A DNA stretch of 64,000 nt from Terriglobia bacterium (GTDB lineage: Bacteria; Acidobacteriota; Terriglobia; Bryobacterales; Bryobacteraceae), in NCBI GenBank assembly GCA_963732025.1, contig CAVSXU010000004.1:145528-209527 (forward strand). Reading direction: 5' to 3'. The notes under the pieces are model-generated. The model did not search any database. It was given only the letters and a program-made list of their open reading frames with translations, and was not told the origin of the DNA. Position 1 is the first letter of the stretch. Each line of letters opens with the position of its first letter. Positions 2,519 to 20,698 of this stretch are shown piece by piece. The translations under genes were made by a program, and so were the position numbers.

Positions 2519-2883
2519 TTACCGCGAGTGCGCCGTCGGCTCGACCAGCGCGCTCATCGATCCTTTCGACCTCGGCATGCGCGGATCGGCGCCATAGCCG
2601 TGAATCTGGTCGCGGCCGAACTCGGCCTGGTCGCGCTCGCAGGTCATGACGATGGTTCGACCCGTGGTGTCCACTTCGACGGCGTGATGAAAAGCCGTCT
2701 CCGGCGGCAGCATAAACAGCTTCCCGAGCATCTCGATCACGTAGTCGTAGGTATGGTCGTCATCGTCAACAGGACGACGTTGAACAGCGGCGAGAGGCGC
2801 TCGTCGTCGATTGTGTTGCCGGCGGGTTCAATCGCGGGGGCGATTGTGGGGCGGGGAGTCATCGCTGTATTGGAAACACTCAT
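2519..2883 (-). pseudogene. clpS: ClpS-like Clp protease adaptor, frameshift near 2767
   Basis: ATG at 2883 gives ...LSPLFNVVLL. One base out of frame it continues DDDDHTYDYVIEMLGKLF...AFHHAVEVDTTGRTIV (ORF 2519-2740), the conserved ClpS core. Confidence 0.7.
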
Positions 2884-2906
2884 TACGATGGTAAAATGAA
2901 GTGAAA

Positions 2907-3264
2907 GGGGGCGCAACGGATTCGACGGGATTGTATCTGTCGTGGTGAAGTCGTGCCGGGTTCCGAGCTCCCGTAAAACGATCGGAAAACAACAACTGCC
3001 AATAATCAGCAGTTTGCTTACGCTGCTTAATTAATTAGGTAGCCGCCCTGGGCCGATGGGCCTGCACTTGGTTTGAGGGCGTCATTTTGCAGGATAGGTC
3101 CAAAGCTTCCGTCCGGAGCCGAAAGCCGAGATCAATCGGGCTAAGCCGCCTCTCTCTTGCCGGTTTCCGCATGAGGCGGACGAAAAATAACGAACCGGAA
3201 ACGCACGTAGTCTTTTCGCGGTAGACTTTCTCGGACGCGGGTTCAACTCCCGCCGCCTCCACCA
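2907..3264 (+). ncRNA. ssrA: tmRNA (transfer-messenger RNA)
   Basis: 5' GGGGGCGCAACGGATTCGACGGG, 3' tRNA-like end GGACGCGGGTTCAACTCCCGCCGCCTCCACCA, internal tag ORF GCC AAT AAT CAG CAG TTT GCT TAC GCT GCT TAA = ANNQQFAYAA*. Confidence 0.95.
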
Positions 3265-3266
3265 TT
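3238..3266. repeat. attL: 29-bp direct repeat formed by the tmRNA 3' end
   Basis: CGGGTTCAACTCCCGCCGCCTCCACCATT is identical to 16164-16192. Confidence 0.9.
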
Positions 3267-3270
3267 CTAT

Positions 3271-4524
3271 CTAGCCTGTTTTCTTAGACTTAATCAACTT
3301 CAGGTGGGTGTTCTTGCTAACATTTGATAACATCCCGCCGCCGCGGCTCTCGGAGATCACTTTGCCGAGGCTGTTGTTCCAAACTTCCGCGGCCGCGGCT
3401 TCGTCGGCTGGTAGGGCATGACTGTAGATCGAAAGCGTCACGTTTGCGTTTTTGTGGCCGAGGCGTTTCGCGACCGTCGGGATGGGCGTCCCCTGGCTAA
3501 GTAGGTGGCTGGCATGGGTGTGCCTGAGAGAGTGCAGGCCGACATCTGAAAGACCAATTTCCCGCGCCAACTCCGTGACGCGAACACTCACTTTGTCGGG
3601 CCGGTAGTATTCACCGTCGGGGCGGCTGAAGATCAAATCGTGCGGCGCATAGGTGCGGCCGTAAAGCTTCCGGTCGGCTTCCTGTTGAACCCTCCAATCT
3701 TCCAGACTGTCAATCGCCTGCTGAGGCACACGAAAGTTTCGTGGTCTTCCCGATTTCGTTGACTTGATGCGCAACCCTGCGCGGGTTTCTTCCAGACTCT
3801 TGTTCACGATCAGCATCCCGGTAGTGACATCGAGGTCCGACCATGTGAGTGCCAGCAACTCTCCGCGACGGCAACCAGTGGCCGAAGCCAGCATGAGCAA
3901 GGGGTAGAGCCGCGTTCCCGACGCAGCCTGCAACAGCGTAAGCAACTCACTCTCATCCAGCGACCGCGCTTCTTTGCGCTCCAGTTCTGGAATCTGGCAG
4001 TCACCATCGAAGGGATTACTAGCGACCAGTTTCCGCGCGACGGCTTTCTTGAAACACCCGGCTACAAGAAATGCGATCTCTCGAACGGTTTTGATCGCGA
4101 GCGGCTTCCCTTGCGGCTGCGCGTCCGTCTTACGGCCACCGCTACGTTCGAGGGCAAGTAGCATATCGTCGATTTCCGCGACGCCGATCTTATCAAGTGG
4201 AAGGTCTCCGATGTGTCGCTGGGCATACCTTCCCAACTCGATATAACGTTCCAGGGTCTTGGGGCTGCATTTGGATTTGTAGTTTTGAATCCAGGAATCA
4301 AAGAACTCCGCGAATCTAGGCGTGGCCTGCTCGCTGACGGGCGTGGGCGTCTGCTGATGCCCTTCGATCGCGGTTCTCAAGGCTTCTTCCGCTTCCGCTT
4401 TCGTCGCGAAGCCGCGCTTCATTTTTTGAATGCGTTTGCCGTTTTCATCGCGCCCGGCAAAGAACGAATAACCGAACGTCGGCTTGCCGCGTACGGGGGT
4501 ATATCTGACAGTGGTGCCCTTCAT
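3271..4524 (-). CDS. int: tyrosine-type site-specific integrase
   Basis: 417 aa. C-terminal catalytic region ...GCRRGELLAL..., HSLRHTHASHLL, LGHKNANVTLSIYSH (R..HxxR..Y pattern); sits adjacent to attL. Confidence 0.9.
   Translation of the reverse strand: MKGTTVRYTPVRGKPTFGYSFFAGRDENGKRIQKMKRGFATKAEAEEALRTAIEGHQQTPTPVSEQATPRFAEFFDSWIQNYKSKCSPKTLERYIELGRYAQRHIGDLPLDKIGVAEIDDMLLALERSGGRKTDAQPQGKPLAIKTVREIAFLVAGCFKKAVARKLVASNPFDGDCQIPELERKEARSLDESELLTLLQAASGTRLYPLLMLASATGCRRGELLALTWSDLDVTTGMLIVNKSLEETRAGLRIKSTKSGRPRNFRVPQQAIDSLEDWRVQQEADRKLYGRTYAPHDLIFSRPDGEYYRPDKVSVRVTELAREIGLSDVGLHSLRHTHASHLLSQGTPIPTVAKRLGHKNANVTLSIYSHALPADEAAAAEVWNNSLGKVISESRGGGMLSNVSKNTHLKLIKSKKTG
3316..3339. repeat. 24-bp repeat near the left end of the element (candidate integrase arm-type site)
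   Basis: GCTAACATTTGATAACATCCCGCC matches 16046-16069 at 23 of 24 positions, same orientation. Confidence 0.5.
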
Positions 4525-5027
4525 GTTTTCTTCCTCTTTTTGGTTTTAGGTGTTTCGGATGTTGGTTTGGAGATGGCTTGGGCGTTGACGGCTTGGATGG
4601 CTTCCATCATGCGCCGCTGTTCACTGAAGCCATAAGCCCAGCGTTCGAGAACGGGTTGAAGAACGTGCTTCAGTGGGCCGCGCAGGTGTTCCCATTGGGG
4701 TTTGCGCAGGACTTCGAGAACCGCGAGTGTGACGTGGGATTCTTCTTCGCTATCGACGCTGAACCAAAGGGGACGCTCGATGCCGCGCTCAAATTCGCTG
4801 AGCGCGCGAAAGTCTGAGGCGCGGGTATAGCCAGCTTCTTCCGCCCATTTAGCGAGCCGCTCCAACGTAGCGCCGCGCGGCGGACCGTAGCTTTCCCACC
4901 TACCAATCGTCTGAACGGCAACGTTGAGCTTTGCCGCGAGTTCGGCTTGAGTCAGTGCTAAGCGCGAGCGCATTTCGATCAACGCGAGAGAAGCGGCGTC
5001 TTTGGATCTTGACGGGGGACGTGGCAT
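4521..5027 (-). CDS. XRE-family HTH regulator (cI-like repressor candidate)
   Basis: HTH LALTQAELAAKLNVAVQTIGRWES; divergent from the xis-like gene; ATGA overlap with int. Confidence 0.75.
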   Translation of the reverse strand: MPRPPSRSKDAASLALIEMRSRLALTQAELAAKLNVAVQTIGRWESYGPPRGATLERLAKWAEEAGYTRASDFRALSEFERGIERPLWFSVDSEEESHVTLAVLEVLRKPQWEHLRGPLKHVLQPVLERWAYGFSEQRRMMEAIQAVNAQAISKPTSETPKTKKRKKT

Positions 5028-5028
5028 G

Positions 5029-5076
5029 TGATAACTTGCGATAACGGTATAACGATTTGAATAAAGAGTGTATCAC
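5029..5076. promoter_or_regulatory. divergent switch region with GATAAC-type repeats (candidate operators)
   Basis: GTGATAACttgcGATAACggTATAAC at 5029-5054, and a partial inverted copy GTGTATCAC at 5068-5076, between the divergent cI-like and xis-like genes. Confidence 0.35.
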
Positions 5077-5097
5077 AGCTTAAAGCGAGGTAACACA

Positions 5098-5355
5098 ATG
5101 CCGCCACTAACCAAGGTGAAACCGAAGCGCGCATACAAGCGCAATCACCCCAACGTCAAAGTGAAATCCAGAGAACGGGCAACGCTGTCGCCGCGTGAAT
5201 CGACGAAGATTACTGGCATTGGCCTGAACCGCACTTATGAGCTACTCAAAAAGCGCGAGATGCCCTCCATCGTAGTAGCGAATCGCTTCTACATCCCAAG
5301 GCAGGCGTTGATGGTGTGGCTCAATAGTTGCGGTAAGACGACAACAGCAGCCTAA
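5098..5355 (+). CDS. excisionase/AlpA-like HTH DNA-binding protein
   Basis: GAGG 8 nt upstream of ATG 5098; motif LSPRESTKITGIGLNRTYELLKKREMPSIVVANRFYIPRQAL. Confidence 0.65.
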   Translation: MPPLTKVKPKRAYKRNHPNVKVKSRERATLSPRESTKITGIGLNRTYELLKKREMPSIVVANRFYIPRQALMVWLNSCGKTTTAA

Positions 5356-5440
5356 AAAAGGGAATCGCGCCGCGTGAGTCTTACCGGGCGGGCAAGCGCG
5401 GCGCGAAGTTGACTACATCACGATCACGAACACGATCACT

Positions 5441-6859
5441 ATGAGTACAACACAGACGAACCGCCGCCCGCCAGATCCCATCGAAGAATTGCCCGCCAGC
5501 GTAGAAACCGAGCGATTGGTGCTCGGGGCGTTGCTGCTCGACTCCGAGCGGTACCTGCCCGCCGTGCGCGCGCTTTATCCCGGTGACTTCATTCTGGAAA
5601 AACACAGGCGCATTTTCCTGCGGGCCATGGAACTCGATCAGCGCGGCGAGAGAGTAGATCGCGTCACGATTCAGGACGAGCTGACAAAGCACGGCCAGCT
5701 CGATTCGGTGGATGGCCCGGCGTATCTCGTTTCGCTCGACGACGGCCTGCCCGAGATCGCGAACATCGCGAGCTACATTCGCATTGTCCAGGACAAGTCG
5801 CTTCGGCGGCGCGTGATCCGTGAAGCATCCGCGCTCGCCAATCGCGCTCAGTTGCAAACCGAGAACACCCTCGACGTGATCGCGGCGGGCGCGGAGCTAT
5901 TTCACAATCTGAAAAGCGAGCGGCGCGAGGGGGCGCAACGCATCGAGTCGCTGCCGTCAGTGTGGAGCTACGAGGTCGAGTATGAATGGATCGTGCCGGG
6001 ATTCCTCGCGAAGGGCACAGTGAATCTGCTGACCGGCGAGAGTGGAGACGGCAAATCAACGGTGGCGCTCAAACTGGCGGGGTGTGTCGCGCGAGGCGAG
6101 CCGTTCCTGGGACGCCCGACCATGCAGCGCGAGGTCGTCTACCTCGACCGGGAAAATCCGATCTCAGTGGTTAAGGACCGGCTCAAGCGGTTGCACATTC
6201 CAGAAACCCCCGAGCTGCACGTGTGGGGAGGATGGATTGAAGTTTTCCCAGAGGGGCCGGATTCCCCCGAAGTGCTCCGCTTCGTCAAGCAGTATCAACC
6301 GCTGATCGTGTTCGACAACAAAGTGACTTTTCATTCCGACGGCGACGAGCAGGACGCGGGAGATACTCGCCGTCACATGGTTCTGTACCGCAGGCTGGCG
6401 GTTCTAGGTGGAACCGTGCTCTTGCTCCACAATTCCGGCAAGAGCGAAGGCTCTCGCCAGTATCGCGGATCGAGCGATATCAAAGCCTCGGTGGATGCGG
6501 CGTATTTGCTGGAGCGCACCGACGGCAGCGATTCCGGCGCTGCGCTGGGTTCGCTGCGCCTGAAGCCATTCAAGAACCGGCTGACGCCCGGCGAGTCGAT
6601 CCGCTTCGAGTATGCGAATGGCGACTTCTCGGTCGCCGATGTGCCGCCGCCGTCGCATTTTGAAGTGCTCGAAGGTATCCTCAGGCTCCATCCTTCGAGC
6701 ACGCAAGCGCAGTTAATCAACTTGGTGAAGCCTTACGGAATCGCGAAGGGGCGCTTACCTGATCTGCTGCTCCAGGGTCACAACAGCGGACGCTTCGAGT
6801 TCCAGTCGGGCAAGAAGGGAGCGAAGCGATGGTCACTTCGAGAACCCGATTTAGTGTGA
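5441..6859 (+). CDS. replication protein: DnaB N-terminal domain fused to a RepA-like AAA ATPase
   Basis: N-terminus LPASVETERLVLGALLLDSE...IVQDKSLRRRVI (DnaB_N-like); Walker A at LLTGESGDGKST. Confidence 0.75.
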   Translation: MSTTQTNRRPPDPIEELPASVETERLVLGALLLDSERYLPAVRALYPGDFILEKHRRIFLRAMELDQRGERVDRVTIQDELTKHGQLDSVDGPAYLVSLDDGLPEIANIASYIRIVQDKSLRRRVIREASALANRAQLQTENTLDVIAAGAELFHNLKSERREGAQRIESLPSVWSYEVEYEWIVPGFLAKGTVNLLTGESGDGKSTVALKLAGCVARGEPFLGRPTMQREVVYLDRENPISVVKDRLKRLHIPETPELHVWGGWIEVFPEGPDSPEVLRFVKQYQPLIVFDNKVTFHSDGDEQDAGDTRRHMVLYRRLAVLGGTVLLLHNSGKSEGSRQYRGSSDIKASVDAAYLLERTDGSDSGAALGSLRLKPFKNRLTPGESIRFEYANGDFSVADVPPPSHFEVLEGILRLHPSSTQAQLINLVKPYGIAKGRLPDLLLQGHNSGRFEFQSGKKGAKRWSLREPDLV

Positions 6860-7043
6860 GCGTCCCGGAATTCCGGGATGCATCCCGGCGCGTCGGGACG
6901 CACAGCGAAAAGACCGTCCCAAAGAGCGTCCCGGAGGGGTCAAAAAAATGAAGGCCTCGGGACGCTTAAACGCCCACAAACTACGGCACTTAACCTAAGC
7001 GTCCCGGAATTTCCTCTCCCTATAGAGAGAAAAATCGGGACGC
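6860..7043. promoter_or_regulatory. iteron array, candidate replication origin of the element
   Basis: GCGTCCCGGA at 6860, 6926 and 6999 alternates with the inverted TCGGGACGC at 6893, 6957 and 7035 (spacing about 31-42 bp). Palindrome TTCCGGGATGCATCCCGG at 6871-6888. Confidence 0.55.
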
Positions 7044-7184
7044 ATGCGTTTTGGGAAGGGGAAAGGCGGGTTATGAACGGAGCCGACAGAAGTCTGGTCC
7101 GCGATCTGCTGTCGCCGAAATCCGCACAGCTGTAGTCAGAAACGAAGGCGGCTGCGCCAGATAAATGGACGTTATCATGCGTAG

Positions 7185-7940
7185 ATGCACGAGTTGATCC
7201 AAGCCTTCCCGGACGTGAATGTTCTTCTTGAACTGGAGCCCGAGATATTGGGATCGAAGTTGCTGTTCTTGACGCGGAAGCGTTTTGACACAGCCAAGTT
7301 CCATCCACCGAATCTGAACGCGGAGCCTTGGCACGGGTCTGTATACCCCGGCCAAGTGTTACCTTGGCCGCGAGAGAAGCAGACTGCGGTCACTGAGGCG
7401 CTGGCCGAGTCTTGGGCATGGCTTGAGGCGCAAGGTCTTGCAATCCCACCCGGAGATGGTAGCGGGCAGAACGGCTGGAGGATGTTAAGTCGGCGGGCCC
7501 GGAGGTTTGAAAGCGAACCGGAGTTCGCCAATTACACCGTCGCGCGAATGCTTCGGCGAGAATCATTGCACTCGAAAATCGCCGATAAGGTTTGGTCAGC
7601 GTTCATGCGGGGAGAATTCGACGTAGCAGCCTTTCAAGCAATGAAAGCGGTTGAGGTGTCGGTACGCGAAGCATCTGGAGCAGGGAACAGTCTTGTCGGC
7701 GTGCCTCTGATGCGCGAGGCTTTTGCACCAGACAAAGGCGCTCTAACTGATACTGCGGTTGAACGCGGTGAGCAGGTCGCGCGCATGGAACTCTTCGCCG
7801 GTGCGATCGGCTCTTACAAAAATCCTCACTCACACCGAGACGTATATCTCATCGATCCGGCTGAAGCGGTCGAGATCATCTTGCTTGCGAATCATCTGCT
7901 GCGTATCGTGGACTTTCGGGTCAACATGAGCGCTTGGTGA
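7185..7940 (+). CDS. TIGR02391-family (Abi C-terminal-like) protein
   Basis: C-terminal half: LHSKIADKVWSAFMRGEFDVAAFQAMKAVEVSVRE...ELFAGAIGSYKNPHSHRDV...LLANHLLRIVD. Confidence 0.7.
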   Translation: MHELIQAFPDVNVLLELEPEILGSKLLFLTRKRFDTAKFHPPNLNAEPWHGSVYPGQVLPWPREKQTAVTEALAESWAWLEAQGLAIPPGDGSGQNGWRMLSRRARRFESEPEFANYTVARMLRRESLHSKIADKVWSAFMRGEFDVAAFQAMKAVEVSVREASGAGNSLVGVPLMREAFAPDKGALTDTAVERGEQVARMELFAGAIGSYKNPHSHRDVYLIDPAEAVEIILLANHLLRIVDFRVNMSAW

Positions 7941-8177
7941 TCTCCGCGTGCCGCCTTAGCGGGCTTCGGACGCGTCCTGGTGCGCTGTAGCGCGATGGAG
8001 GGGGCACGTGGAAGGATTTTTGCTTCGACCACCCCTCGCGGGCGGCGGCCCGCACAGGAAAACGACTCACCGTCCTCAAAAAGGTGATTTCCGCCCGGCG
8101 ACCAGTTTCCGATAACCCCACATATCGTTCCCAACCCTCCAGGACACCGAGACCGAGCGGTGTCCTTCGGCGCGACA

Positions 8178-8789
8178 TCAGTCCGTATCGGTAATTGCGA
8201 GTATCGATAATCTGCGGAGTCGCCGGTCAAACAGAACGACGGTCATGTCCCAAGCGATTCCCTTGAACCAGGGCGTCCAGCCCTGGAAACTCTCCAGCAG
8301 GGACACTTCTCCGAACCGCAAGCCAAAGATGTCATCGCAAACTTGTAGCGCCAGATCTTTATCCCCACGACCGTCTCCCACTGCGACAGTGTAAGCACCT
8401 CCGTTGTAAAGAGCGTGTGCGAGCCTTCCATCGATCAGAAAGGGGTCACCCATTGCAAGACCGGTCTCAGCTTTCGACTCAGGGATTTGTACTTGGGGTA
8501 GCGCTTCACGGATAGCCGGATGCACGATGAGCGTATCAATTAAGCGTTCATCGGAGAGGCGATTCCGTGAAGCGAACCAATCGAACACCAACTCCGGTCC
8601 GACTGCGAATACTGCAAAATGTGCTCCACCGTTACTGTGGGACTTCCGAACGCGCTCGATGAATTGATCGACAGCATCTGACTCTAACTCCACTCGACTG
8701 AGGCTGATCCTACTGCACATCAGCCGCACTTCATCAAACCCTGGTCGAGGCTGGTTCCAATCTGGTTCCAGAGGCGGAGACTCGGACAT
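8178..8789 (-). CDS. hypothetical protein (203 aa), accessory gene of the element
   Basis: Intact ORF convergent with the TIGR02391 gene; no motif recognised. Confidence 0.5.
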   Translation of the reverse strand: MSESPPLEPDWNQPRPGFDEVRLMCSRISLSRVELESDAVDQFIERVRKSHSNGGAHFAVFAVGPELVFDWFASRNRLSDERLIDTLIVHPAIREALPQVQIPESKAETGLAMGDPFLIDGRLAHALYNGGAYTVAVGDGRGDKDLALQVCDDIFGLRFGEVSLLESFQGWTPWFKGIAWDMTVVLFDRRLRRLSILAITDTD

Positions 8790-8886
8790 ATCGATATTCT
8801 AGCGGCGATTGTGGACGAAAAACGGCGTTAGCGGAACTGGCCCCGCACTCTGCCTCCGCTTGCCTTGATCGGGCCACAATAGCTTC

Positions 8887-9171
8887 ATGGCTCGCGTTGC
8901 TTCCACCATCGAAGACGCCCGACTGCTGAAGGAACGCGCTCTGGCGAAATTGCGCGTGCTGCAATCCGACGCGCTCGAAGGCAAGTTGCTCGACCGCGAT
9001 CAGGTGCGCGCGCAGTGGGCGCAGTGCTTCGCTTCGTTGCGCGACCGCGCGCTGGGCATGGCCGACCGCATCGCGAGCCGTGGCGCGAATCGCACGCCCG
9101 CCGAGCTGCGCAGCATCGTCGATCTCGAAGTTAAAGACTTACTCGAAGCGGTAAGCCGTGGCGATTTTTGA
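8887..9171 (+). CDS. short terminase small-subunit-like protein (resembles the Nu1 C-terminal region only)
   Basis: 94 aa coiled-coil-like ...LLKERALAKLRVLQSDALEGKLLDRDQV...; its stop overlaps the terL start. Confidence 0.45.
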   Translation: MARVASTIEDARLLKERALAKLRVLQSDALEGKLLDRDQVRAQWAQCFASLRDRALGMADRIASRGANRTPAELRSIVDLEVKDLLEAVSRGDF

Positions 9172-20570: not shown

Positions 20571-20680
20571 CTTCATCAAGAAAGCACAGAACTGGGAGTT
20601 GAGGAAGGCGGGGCTGTACGTTTGTGTTCGAATCTCGTTGCCGACCCGCGGGTCGCTTCGACGGATGACCAGCTGATTTT

Positions 20681-20698
20681 CCGCCGCCTCCACCATTT
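20681..20698. repeat. degenerate copy of the tmRNA 3' end (att remnant candidate)
   Basis: CCGCCGCCTCCACCATTT matches the last 17 nt of the att core; a shorter copy CGCCTCCACCATTT lies at 20875-20888. Confidence 0.4.

Follow-up and report, generated by a model that had tools for sequence, protein, structure and literature searches.

A lysine-variant Ymh HEPN protein and an unrelated conserved protein share the cargo slot of a satellite-like island in a Terriglobia bacterium

Introduction

Do two neighbouring genes in the cargo position of a mobile element form one defence system, or do they only share an address? The question is raised by an island inserted at the transfer-messenger RNA (tmRNA) gene ssrA of a Terriglobia bacterium (Acidobacteriota; assembly GCA_963732025.1), within a 64,000-nucleotide stretch of contig CAVSXU010000004.1 that is called the window here and to which all coordinates without another prefix refer. 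Between the replication gene of this island and its small-terminase gene, terS, lie two open reading frames (ORFs): gene 1, whose product ends in a Ymh-type HEPN domain, and gene 2, which encodes a conserved protein on the opposite strand. A first-pass annotation, made from the sequence alone, had proposed that the two constitute a defence or superinfection-exclusion cassette. The explanation that we favour, with a probability of roughly 0.6, is that each was acquired horizontally as a single gene, independently of the other, and that both ride in the exchangeable middle part of a satellite-like island, gene 1 being a stand-alone defence protein of the HEPN ribonuclease (RNase) type and gene 2 not its partner.

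Co-occurrence of the Two Genes

A large protein collection holds 2728 relatives of gene 1 and 205 of gene 2, each set with dozens of invariant columns, and because of this breadth and conservation we regard both as genuine conserved genes. Their joint occurrence was followed through a few dozen places. On the gene-2 side these were 24 genome loci from other species, most with 10 kb on each side and a few cut by a contig end, together with five further metagenome contexts and one Bacillus plasmid; none contained a gene-1 relative. On the gene-1 side, nine metagenome or genome contigs, seven genomes of the phylum (±1.5 kb only), eight IMG/VR contigs, Burkholderia phage KS9 and two plasmids contained no gene-2 relative. 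In total, gene 1 is missing from about 30 places with gene 2, and gene 2 from about 27 places with gene 1 (about 57 altogether), and among 400 sampled Acidobacteriota genomes seven carry gene 1 (E<=1e-30) and none carries gene 2 (E<=1e-15). The first-pass annotation had itself named co-occurrence in other genomes as a check to run and permanent separation as one of the grounds for giving the proposal up. Separation was the outcome in every place examined, and the cassette is rejected because the pair was found nowhere else among these places and genomes.

A joint cassette, in which the convergent pair would encode an effector with its sensor or a toxin with its immunity protein, is now extremely unlikely. 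It would suit the adjacency of the genes in a cargo slot, the rarity of both, and their shared low GC content (56% for gene 1 and 54% for gene 2, vs. 62-66% for the packaging-module genes). However, the two genes are convergent in the ORF list and therefore not co-transcribed, the relatives of gene 1 stand solo or are paired otherwise (with AbiEii, a tyrosine recombinase or KS9 gp30), and those of gene 2 lie amid housekeeping genes and transposases. A terminator scan found no intrinsic terminator in the spacer between the two genes (7941-8177), and a promoter scan of the cargo slot gave no full sigma-70 match. The broader suggestion of anti-phage cargo divides between the genes: it stands for gene 1, which belongs to a HEPN family and has relatives in defence islands, on plasmids and in a temperate phage, and it lapses for gene 2, which matches nothing in PADLOC or PHROGs and has housekeeping and transposase neighbours.

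The Cargo Slot of a Satellite-Like Island

The same annotation had placed the two ORFs between the replication gene or origin and terS, and had read this as an accessory slot, of the kind in which anti-phage cargo gathers in satellites and prophages; the coordinates, the neighbours (by Pfam and phrog_57) and a comparison of related islands all agree with it. A sibling island on another contig of the same genome (L209, G000:C6:2250500-2269500) has a large terminase (TerL) that is 88% identical and a packaging and head module with 82-85% DNA identity to that of the window island. By blastn the two islands are similar at 5417-5920 (75%) and at 8953-15486 (82-85%), and the sole unshared segment between these matched stretches, 5921-8952, comprises the C-terminal part of the replication gene, the origin, gene 1, gene 2 and the 5′ end of terS. 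The sibling has a serine recombinase, a replication protein of the DnaB_N+DUF3987 type, and a gap of 0.9 kb before terS with a single 70-aa ORF. In two IMG/VR relatives (L048 and L049, TerL about 70%), one and three unrelated unknown genes occupy the slot, respectively. In an island of a genome of the same bacterial family (L210, on G279:C1; TerL 67%, TerS 75%), a 335-aa TIR_2 protein is encoded immediately upstream of terS, the equivalent of the cargo slot (L210:9458-10465); it matches PF13676 (E 6.9e-11) and spbK, the PADLOC model of SpbK abortive infection (E 3.1e-15). The contents between the replication gene and terS thus differ in these four related islands, and the position is an exchangeable cargo slot. 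A metagenome scan with terL yielded one short close relative only.

Exact 29-nt direct repeats flank the island as a whole, which begins with a tyrosine integrase, a cI-like HTH_3 regulator, an HTH_17 protein, the DnaB_N/AAA_25 replication protein, gene 1 and gene 2, and continues with TerS, a GpA-type TerL, a portal protein, a protease-capsid fusion, a head-tail adaptor, a head-decoration protein and an XRE regulator; Pfam and PHROGs identified no tail or lysis genes among its ORFs. TerS aligns to positions 85-173 of the 199-position phrog_57 small-terminase model and lacks the N-terminal part. The gene content that defines capsid-forming satellites (phage-inducible chromosomal islands that form capsids, cfPICI) has been described (PMC10085698), and the island contains the corresponding set, with integrase, regulator, replication protein, terS, terL, portal, capsid/protease and head-tail adaptor, and without tail or lysis genes. 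Judged by its gene content, it is a tail-less, capsid-encoding, satellite-like element. A degenerate third copy of the attachment (att) repeat, 76% identical to the 29-nt repeat, lies at 20669-20697, 4.5 kb past the right-hand repeat (attR), and may be the remnant of an older tandem insertion.

Gene 1: A Ymh HEPN Domain With a Fixed Lysine

Residues 127-241 of gene 1 match the Pfam family Hypoth_Ymh (PF09509; E 7.8e-26, 90.7 bits, cut-off 25), and the protein also matches TIGR02391 (E 1.7e-20, 73.4 bits, cut-off 39.45), so that both profiles score above their curated cut-offs. The TIGR02391-type C-terminal domain behind an unmatched N-terminal stretch, which had been noticed at first pass, is thereby upheld. 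The accompanying label "Abi-C-like" is apt at the level of the HEPN superfamily and fails for the Pfam family Abi_C (PF14355, the AbiA C-terminal type), which was unmatched by gene 1 at E<=0.01 and by its family members at E<=5. Searches of NCBIfam with gene 1 and gene 2 added nothing useful beyond Ymh/TIGR02391, and neither protein matched a PHROG. The N-terminal approximately 126 residues correspond to no Pfam model at E<=5 in any of 28 family members (the query and 27 relatives), and paraMORC, AbiJ-NTD1 and AbiTii were not detected there by Pfam. In the alignment of relatives this domain contains an invariant basic stretch, S-R-R-A-x-x-F, at aa 102-108.

The Ymh family has been placed in the HEPN superfamily, with Rx4-6H listed among its conserved features (Anantharaman et al. 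2013, PMC3710099); its members occur as solos and as fusions in restriction-modification and Abi contexts, and a metal-independent RNase activity is predicted for them (PMC3710099). Ex3[KR] and Rx4-6H are described there as HEPN features. In gene 1, the alignment of relatives shows an Ex3R in which E157 is invariant and R161 near-invariant, as well as invariant N213 and H217. The His, the polar residue after the basic position and the upstream Ex3[KR] of a canonical HEPN RNase are thus all in place. The Arg of R-x4-6-H is not: K212 occupies its position throughout the subfamily, and in an alignment with a canonical Ymh paralogue from the same genome, a distant 234-aa protein with a different N-terminal region (L031, G000:C7:654526-657897), K212 falls on the Arg of RNPHAH. 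The motif Y-K-N-P-x-S-H-R is identical in every full-length relative examined but one, which has K-S-P-R-G-H-R instead. These relatives have identities between 82% and 35%; they come from Acidobacteriota, Burkholderia phage KS9, Rhizobium and Methylococcus plasmids, and IMG/VR contigs. Because the motif is nearly identical across such distances, the site is constrained rather than decaying, and the gene-1 subfamily is a distinct one, with a fixed Lys variant under strong constraint.

The AlphaFold (AF2) model of gene 1 is good for each domain (predicted local distance difference test score, pLDDT, 84.8) and uncertain in the arrangement of the two (predicted template modelling score, pTM, 0.57). 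Foldseek returned only matches with E>0.5 for the whole model, to winged-helix-like and HEPN pieces, a weak result that is put down to this uncertain arrangement. A sequence-profile search of the PDB with the gene-1 family retrieved no relatives. PADLOC gave one weak match, of the HEPN part only, to PD-Lambda-3_B (E 1.3e-4, 19.4 bits), and none for gene 2 or the flanking genes.

The substituted Arg also allows gene 1 to be read as a catalytically altered HEPN protein that binds RNA or other nucleic acids and regulates the satellite or phage cycle, for example in helper-phage interference. Lys stands in place of the catalytic Arg throughout the subfamily, the N-terminal domain has its invariant basic stretch and faint winged-helix-like fold matches, and motif-less HEPN domains can be binding domains (PMC3710099). 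However, the invariant His, the polar Asn and the Ex3R retain an active-site pattern that has not decayed. Moreover, gene 1 is not present in the four related satellite islands examined and hence is not part of a core satellite programme, and its relatives also occur on plasmids and in defence islands without nearby phage genes. We consider a purely regulatory role unlikely.

Distribution and Neighbourhoods of Gene 1

The distribution of gene 1 is patchy: beyond the seven sampled genomes already mentioned, it is absent from a genome of the same genus. Several relatives sit among defence genes. One (in locus L025) lies in a Lamassu / TIR / ubiquitin-like island that also contains MC3/CTD7, with AbiEii directly upstream; another is found in a QatB / Schlafen-like / AbiEii / helicase island, and a third beside a HEPN gene, a resolvase and an integrase. 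On the conjugative plasmid pRphaN831c of Rhizobium phaseoli (L223, 8913-19650), a relative of 55% identity is flanked by a giant DUF3320 helicase-like gene and by a ThiF / Mov34-JAB / helicase cluster, a neighbourhood that is probably a defence island. In phage KS9 the relative occupies the moron region beyond the lysis genes. Three relatives overlap a XerC/D-like tyrosine recombinase gene by 4 nt at the stop codon (L043:8001-9733, L044, and L224:6-1705 of the Methylococcus plasmid), and these pairs may be small mobile two-gene units. Across the loci examined, in which the neighbours were annotated partly from crude ORF calls, gene 1 has no shared neighbour and no small upstream or downstream partner.

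The L025 locus shows an arrangement of its own. At L025:8580-10765, an AbiEii-type nucleotidyltransferase of 467 aa is encoded 18 nt upstream of the gene-1 relative, its C-terminal part has a weak WYL-like match (PADLOC, E 1.2e-5), and the two genes together recall MNT-HEPN pairs.

Relatives of gene 1 are also found beside toxin-antitoxin (TA) pairs at plasmid, prophage and island loci, which raises the question of whether gene 1 could be an addiction or stabilisation toxin that retains the island, plasmid or prophage and is restrained by either its N-terminal domain or a host factor. These locations, and the AbiEii gene directly upstream in one locus with its resemblance to MNT-HEPN toxin-antitoxin pairs, would be in keeping with such a toxin. 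However, most relatives are solo, and no conserved antitoxin-like partner was found, nor any in the window; an addiction function is accordingly quite unlikely.

Gene 2: A Conserved Orphan

That gene 2 resembles nothing recognisable, as the first-pass annotation had it, is very nearly the case. Its sole profile match is to DUF6183 (PF19681; 27.3 bits, cut-off 26.6), which is covered only at model positions 324-360 of 360. This terminal stretch of 37 positions (W..WF..AWD...FD......TDTD) was matched in all 31 of the gene-2 family members tested. At 50% identity the family falls into 734 clusters, nearly all of them solitary proteins of about 200 aa, with rare fusions to N-terminal GNAT or SnoaL domains. 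Among 113 diverse members the conserved core consists of G54, W71, G-G-A-Y (130-133), R158, W171, W174-F175, W180-D181, D188 and a C-terminal T-D-x-D. On the minus strand, TAGAAT lies at 8796-8801, 6 nt before the ATG of gene 2, where there is no Shine-Dalgarno sequence; this hexamer was not called by the generic promoter scan. Its spacing and the lack of a Shine-Dalgarno sequence suggest that the gene-2 transcript may be leaderless.

No phage or defence signal attaches to gene 2 in PADLOC or PHROGs, and no relatives were found in phage genomes or IMG/VR. Neither all-against-all ORF clustering of the 24 genome loci nor a tally by Pfam of the 84 neighbours present at 21 of them revealed a conserved neighbour; at these 21 the neighbours are housekeeping genes and transposases, with nothing enriched. 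Gene 2 is thus an unrelated orphan passenger, which elsewhere is a solitary chromosomal gene. As to what this conserved cytoplasmic protein does, we would only guess, with low confidence, at a protein-binding or regulatory factor that is carried as a moron.

Gene 2 could also be carried along by chance, either as an orphan immunity protein whose target is a secreted polymorphic toxin or as an enzyme that handles small molecules. It is small, conserved, solitary and cytoplasmic; one relative lies approximately 0.8 kb from a Tdi1-type immunity gene of a type VI secretion system (T6SS); GNAT and SnoaL are occasionally fused to the family; and a conserved acidic cluster is formed by D181, D188 and, in the C-terminal T-D-x-D, D201 and D203. 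However, neither toxin genes nor immunity arrays are enriched in the tally of 84 neighbours (21 of the 24 genome loci), and by Foldseek the fold matches no known immunity family, which makes this role improbable. Two narrower candidates were rejected, namely SUKH-type immunity, for which Foldseek gave no such fold matches, and an antitoxin role.

The AF2 model of gene 2 is confident (pLDDT 92.4, pTM 0.90), and its sole structural neighbours in Foldseek are human, citrus and yeast Maf1, the remainder being noise. Against Maf1 3nr5 the match has E 8.4e-4, a probability of 1.00, template modelling (TM) scores of 0.41/0.50 and 10% identity. Sequence-profile searching of the PDB with the gene-2 family retrieved no relatives, Maf1 included. 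The Maf1 profile PF09174 matched nothing in the genome at E<=10, a weak negative in that the control genomes could not have matched. Among viral structures Foldseek found none at E<=0.001; a single Pandoravirus protein was borderline (E 1.7e-3), and the rest was noise. Literature searches found no papers on TIGR02391, DUF6183 or Maf1-like prokaryotic proteins. If the modelled resemblance were taken at face value, the family could be a widespread, unrecognised prokaryotic Maf1-fold family that binds and throttles RNA polymerase, here as a transcription brake borne by a mobile element, and could point to the origin of Maf1; we rate this as very unlikely.

Favoured Explanation

Under the explanation of two independent passengers, gene 1 most likely encodes a stand-alone sensor-plus-RNase protein of abortive infection or exclusion, with a predicted RNase activity and a putative trigger. 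Its HEPN domain would dimerise and form a metal-independent RNase site from E157-x3-R161 and K212-N-x3-H217, while the N-terminal domain would hold this site off or sense a cue from the infecting phage. Once switched on, the protein would cut cellular RNA, phage RNA or both, and the infected cell would cease to produce phage, by abortive infection or superinfection exclusion. In this way gene 1 may shield the satellite's host population from phages that the satellite cannot exploit.

Several findings weigh against this explanation. The catalytic Arg is a Lys across the gene-1 subfamily, and RNase activity is therefore not assured. No validated defence-system model matches gene 1 well, the best PADLOC score being 19.4 bits, and two gene-1 relatives sit among housekeeping genes. 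For gene 2, the resemblance to Maf1 is at the level of the fold only (TM 0.41-0.50), sequence profiles do not support it, and any function proposed from the model is a guess only.

Features of the Locus

The coordinates of the island, its cargo slot and the two genes are collected in Table 1.

Table 1. Features of the satellite-like island and its cargo slot (window coordinates).
Feature	Position	Strand	Description	Basis
Host island	3238-16192	.	12.9 kb, at 3′ end of tmRNA gene	29-nt direct repeats; gene content
tmRNA gene (ssrA)	2836-3264			tmRNA search
Exact 29-nt direct repeats bounding the island	3238-3266 and 16164-16192			repeat search
Replication gene	5441-6859		DnaB_N/AAA_25	Pfam
Variable segment	5921-8952	.	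no DNA similarity to L209	blastn
Repeat-rich stretch behind replication gene	6860-7043			sequence reading
Gene 1	7185-7940	+	251 aa, contains ...ELFAGAIGSYKNPHSHRDV...	ORF list; PF09509 and TIGR02391 matches
Gene 1 N-terminal domain, aa 1-126	7185-7562	+	mostly helical; no Pfam family	
Gene 1 HEPN (Ymh) domain, aa 127-241	7563-7907	+	contains E157-x3-R161	Pfam limits
Gene 1 variant motif K212-N-P-H-S-H217	7818-7835	+	Lys where canonical residue is Arg	
Spacer between convergent gene 1 and gene 2	7941-8177	.	237 bp	sequence reading
Gene 2	8178-8789	-	203 aa, conserved protein, predicted Maf1-like alpha/beta fold	ORF list; stand-alone gene elsewhere
Divergent spacer, gene 2 to terS	8790-8886	.	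97 bp	sequence reading
terS	8887-9171		94 aa	phrog_57
terL	9158-10987		GpA-type	Pfam

Implications

The logic of satellite defence hotspots known from Proteobacteria and Firmicutes extends, on this reading, to a satellite-like island of a soil acidobacterium. The gene-1 subfamily crosses phyla on phages, plasmids and satellites, and joins a new N-terminal domain to a Ymh HEPN domain in which Lys strictly replaces Arg. It is a candidate for a new single-gene abortive-infection system, and a natural case in which to ask if a HEPN RNase site can work with Lys. For the gene-2 family, with its 734 clusters and its well-folded prediction, the Maf1-like model is a lead and not a finding. More generally, the locus is a caution that genes may adjoin in a cargo slot without being functionally linked. 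Our overall claim is a modest one: gene 1 appears to be ordinary defence-type cargo of a known family, and two modest leads follow, one being the Ymh subfamily with its Lys variant and the other the resemblance of the gene-2 fold to Maf1.

Comparison With Known Systems

Gene 1 is closest to the Ymh/TIGR02391 family (PF09509) itself: its C-terminal 115 aa score well above threshold, the Ex3R, the polar residue and the His are kept, and it is found solo on mobile elements and in defence contexts, as has been described for that family (PMC3710099). It differs in the Lys that replaces the Arg of Rx4-6H in the whole subfamily, and in an N-terminal domain that is none of the reported fusion partners recognisable by Pfam. 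The nearest named protein is gp29 of Burkholderia phage KS9 (YP_003090206, "TIGR02391 family protein"), which is alike over its full length (49% identity over 97%), has YKNPHSHR, and is likewise non-structural cargo on a temperate mobile element; however, the gp29 gene has an overlap with gp30, a small gene upstream of it, and its place is past the lysis genes in a tailed phage that is complete.

Among characterised defence systems, PD-lambda-3 is a two-gene system of E. coli that is reported to act by abortive infection (PMC13190303) and has a nuclease partner (PMC10952713). The HEPN part of gene 1 is matched by its component B, yet the match is weak and confined to the C-terminal domain, and the nuclease partner has no counterpart here, so that only a partial component B represents the two-component system. 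Gene 1 differs similarly from HEPN-MNT and AbiE-type pairs, as no nucleotidyltransferase or antitoxin gene stands beside it in the window and AbiEii occurs only at other loci.

Gene 2 can be compared with eukaryotic Maf1, the repressor of RNA polymerase III (PDB 3nr5, 5u4z and 6tut): most of the best-ranked Foldseek matches are Maf1 of human, plant or yeast origin, whereas gene 2 and Maf1 share no sequence-level similarity and TM reaches only 0.41-0.50. The likeness to DUF6183 is similarly partial, since the 37 positions that gene-2 family members match lie at its C-terminus and make up just a tenth of the 360-position model.

Finally, the island itself invites comparison with the defence hotspots of satellites and prophages (P4, PICI and cfPICI; de Sousa et al. 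2023, PMC10085698). It differs from them in its acidobacterial host, in an exchange unit that includes the C-terminus of the replication gene and the origin, and in that just one of its two cargo genes looks defensive; it resembles them in a fixed backbone position that holds varied accessory genes, including defence-type ones, with a TIR/SpbK-like protein in the related G279 island and a HEPN protein here.

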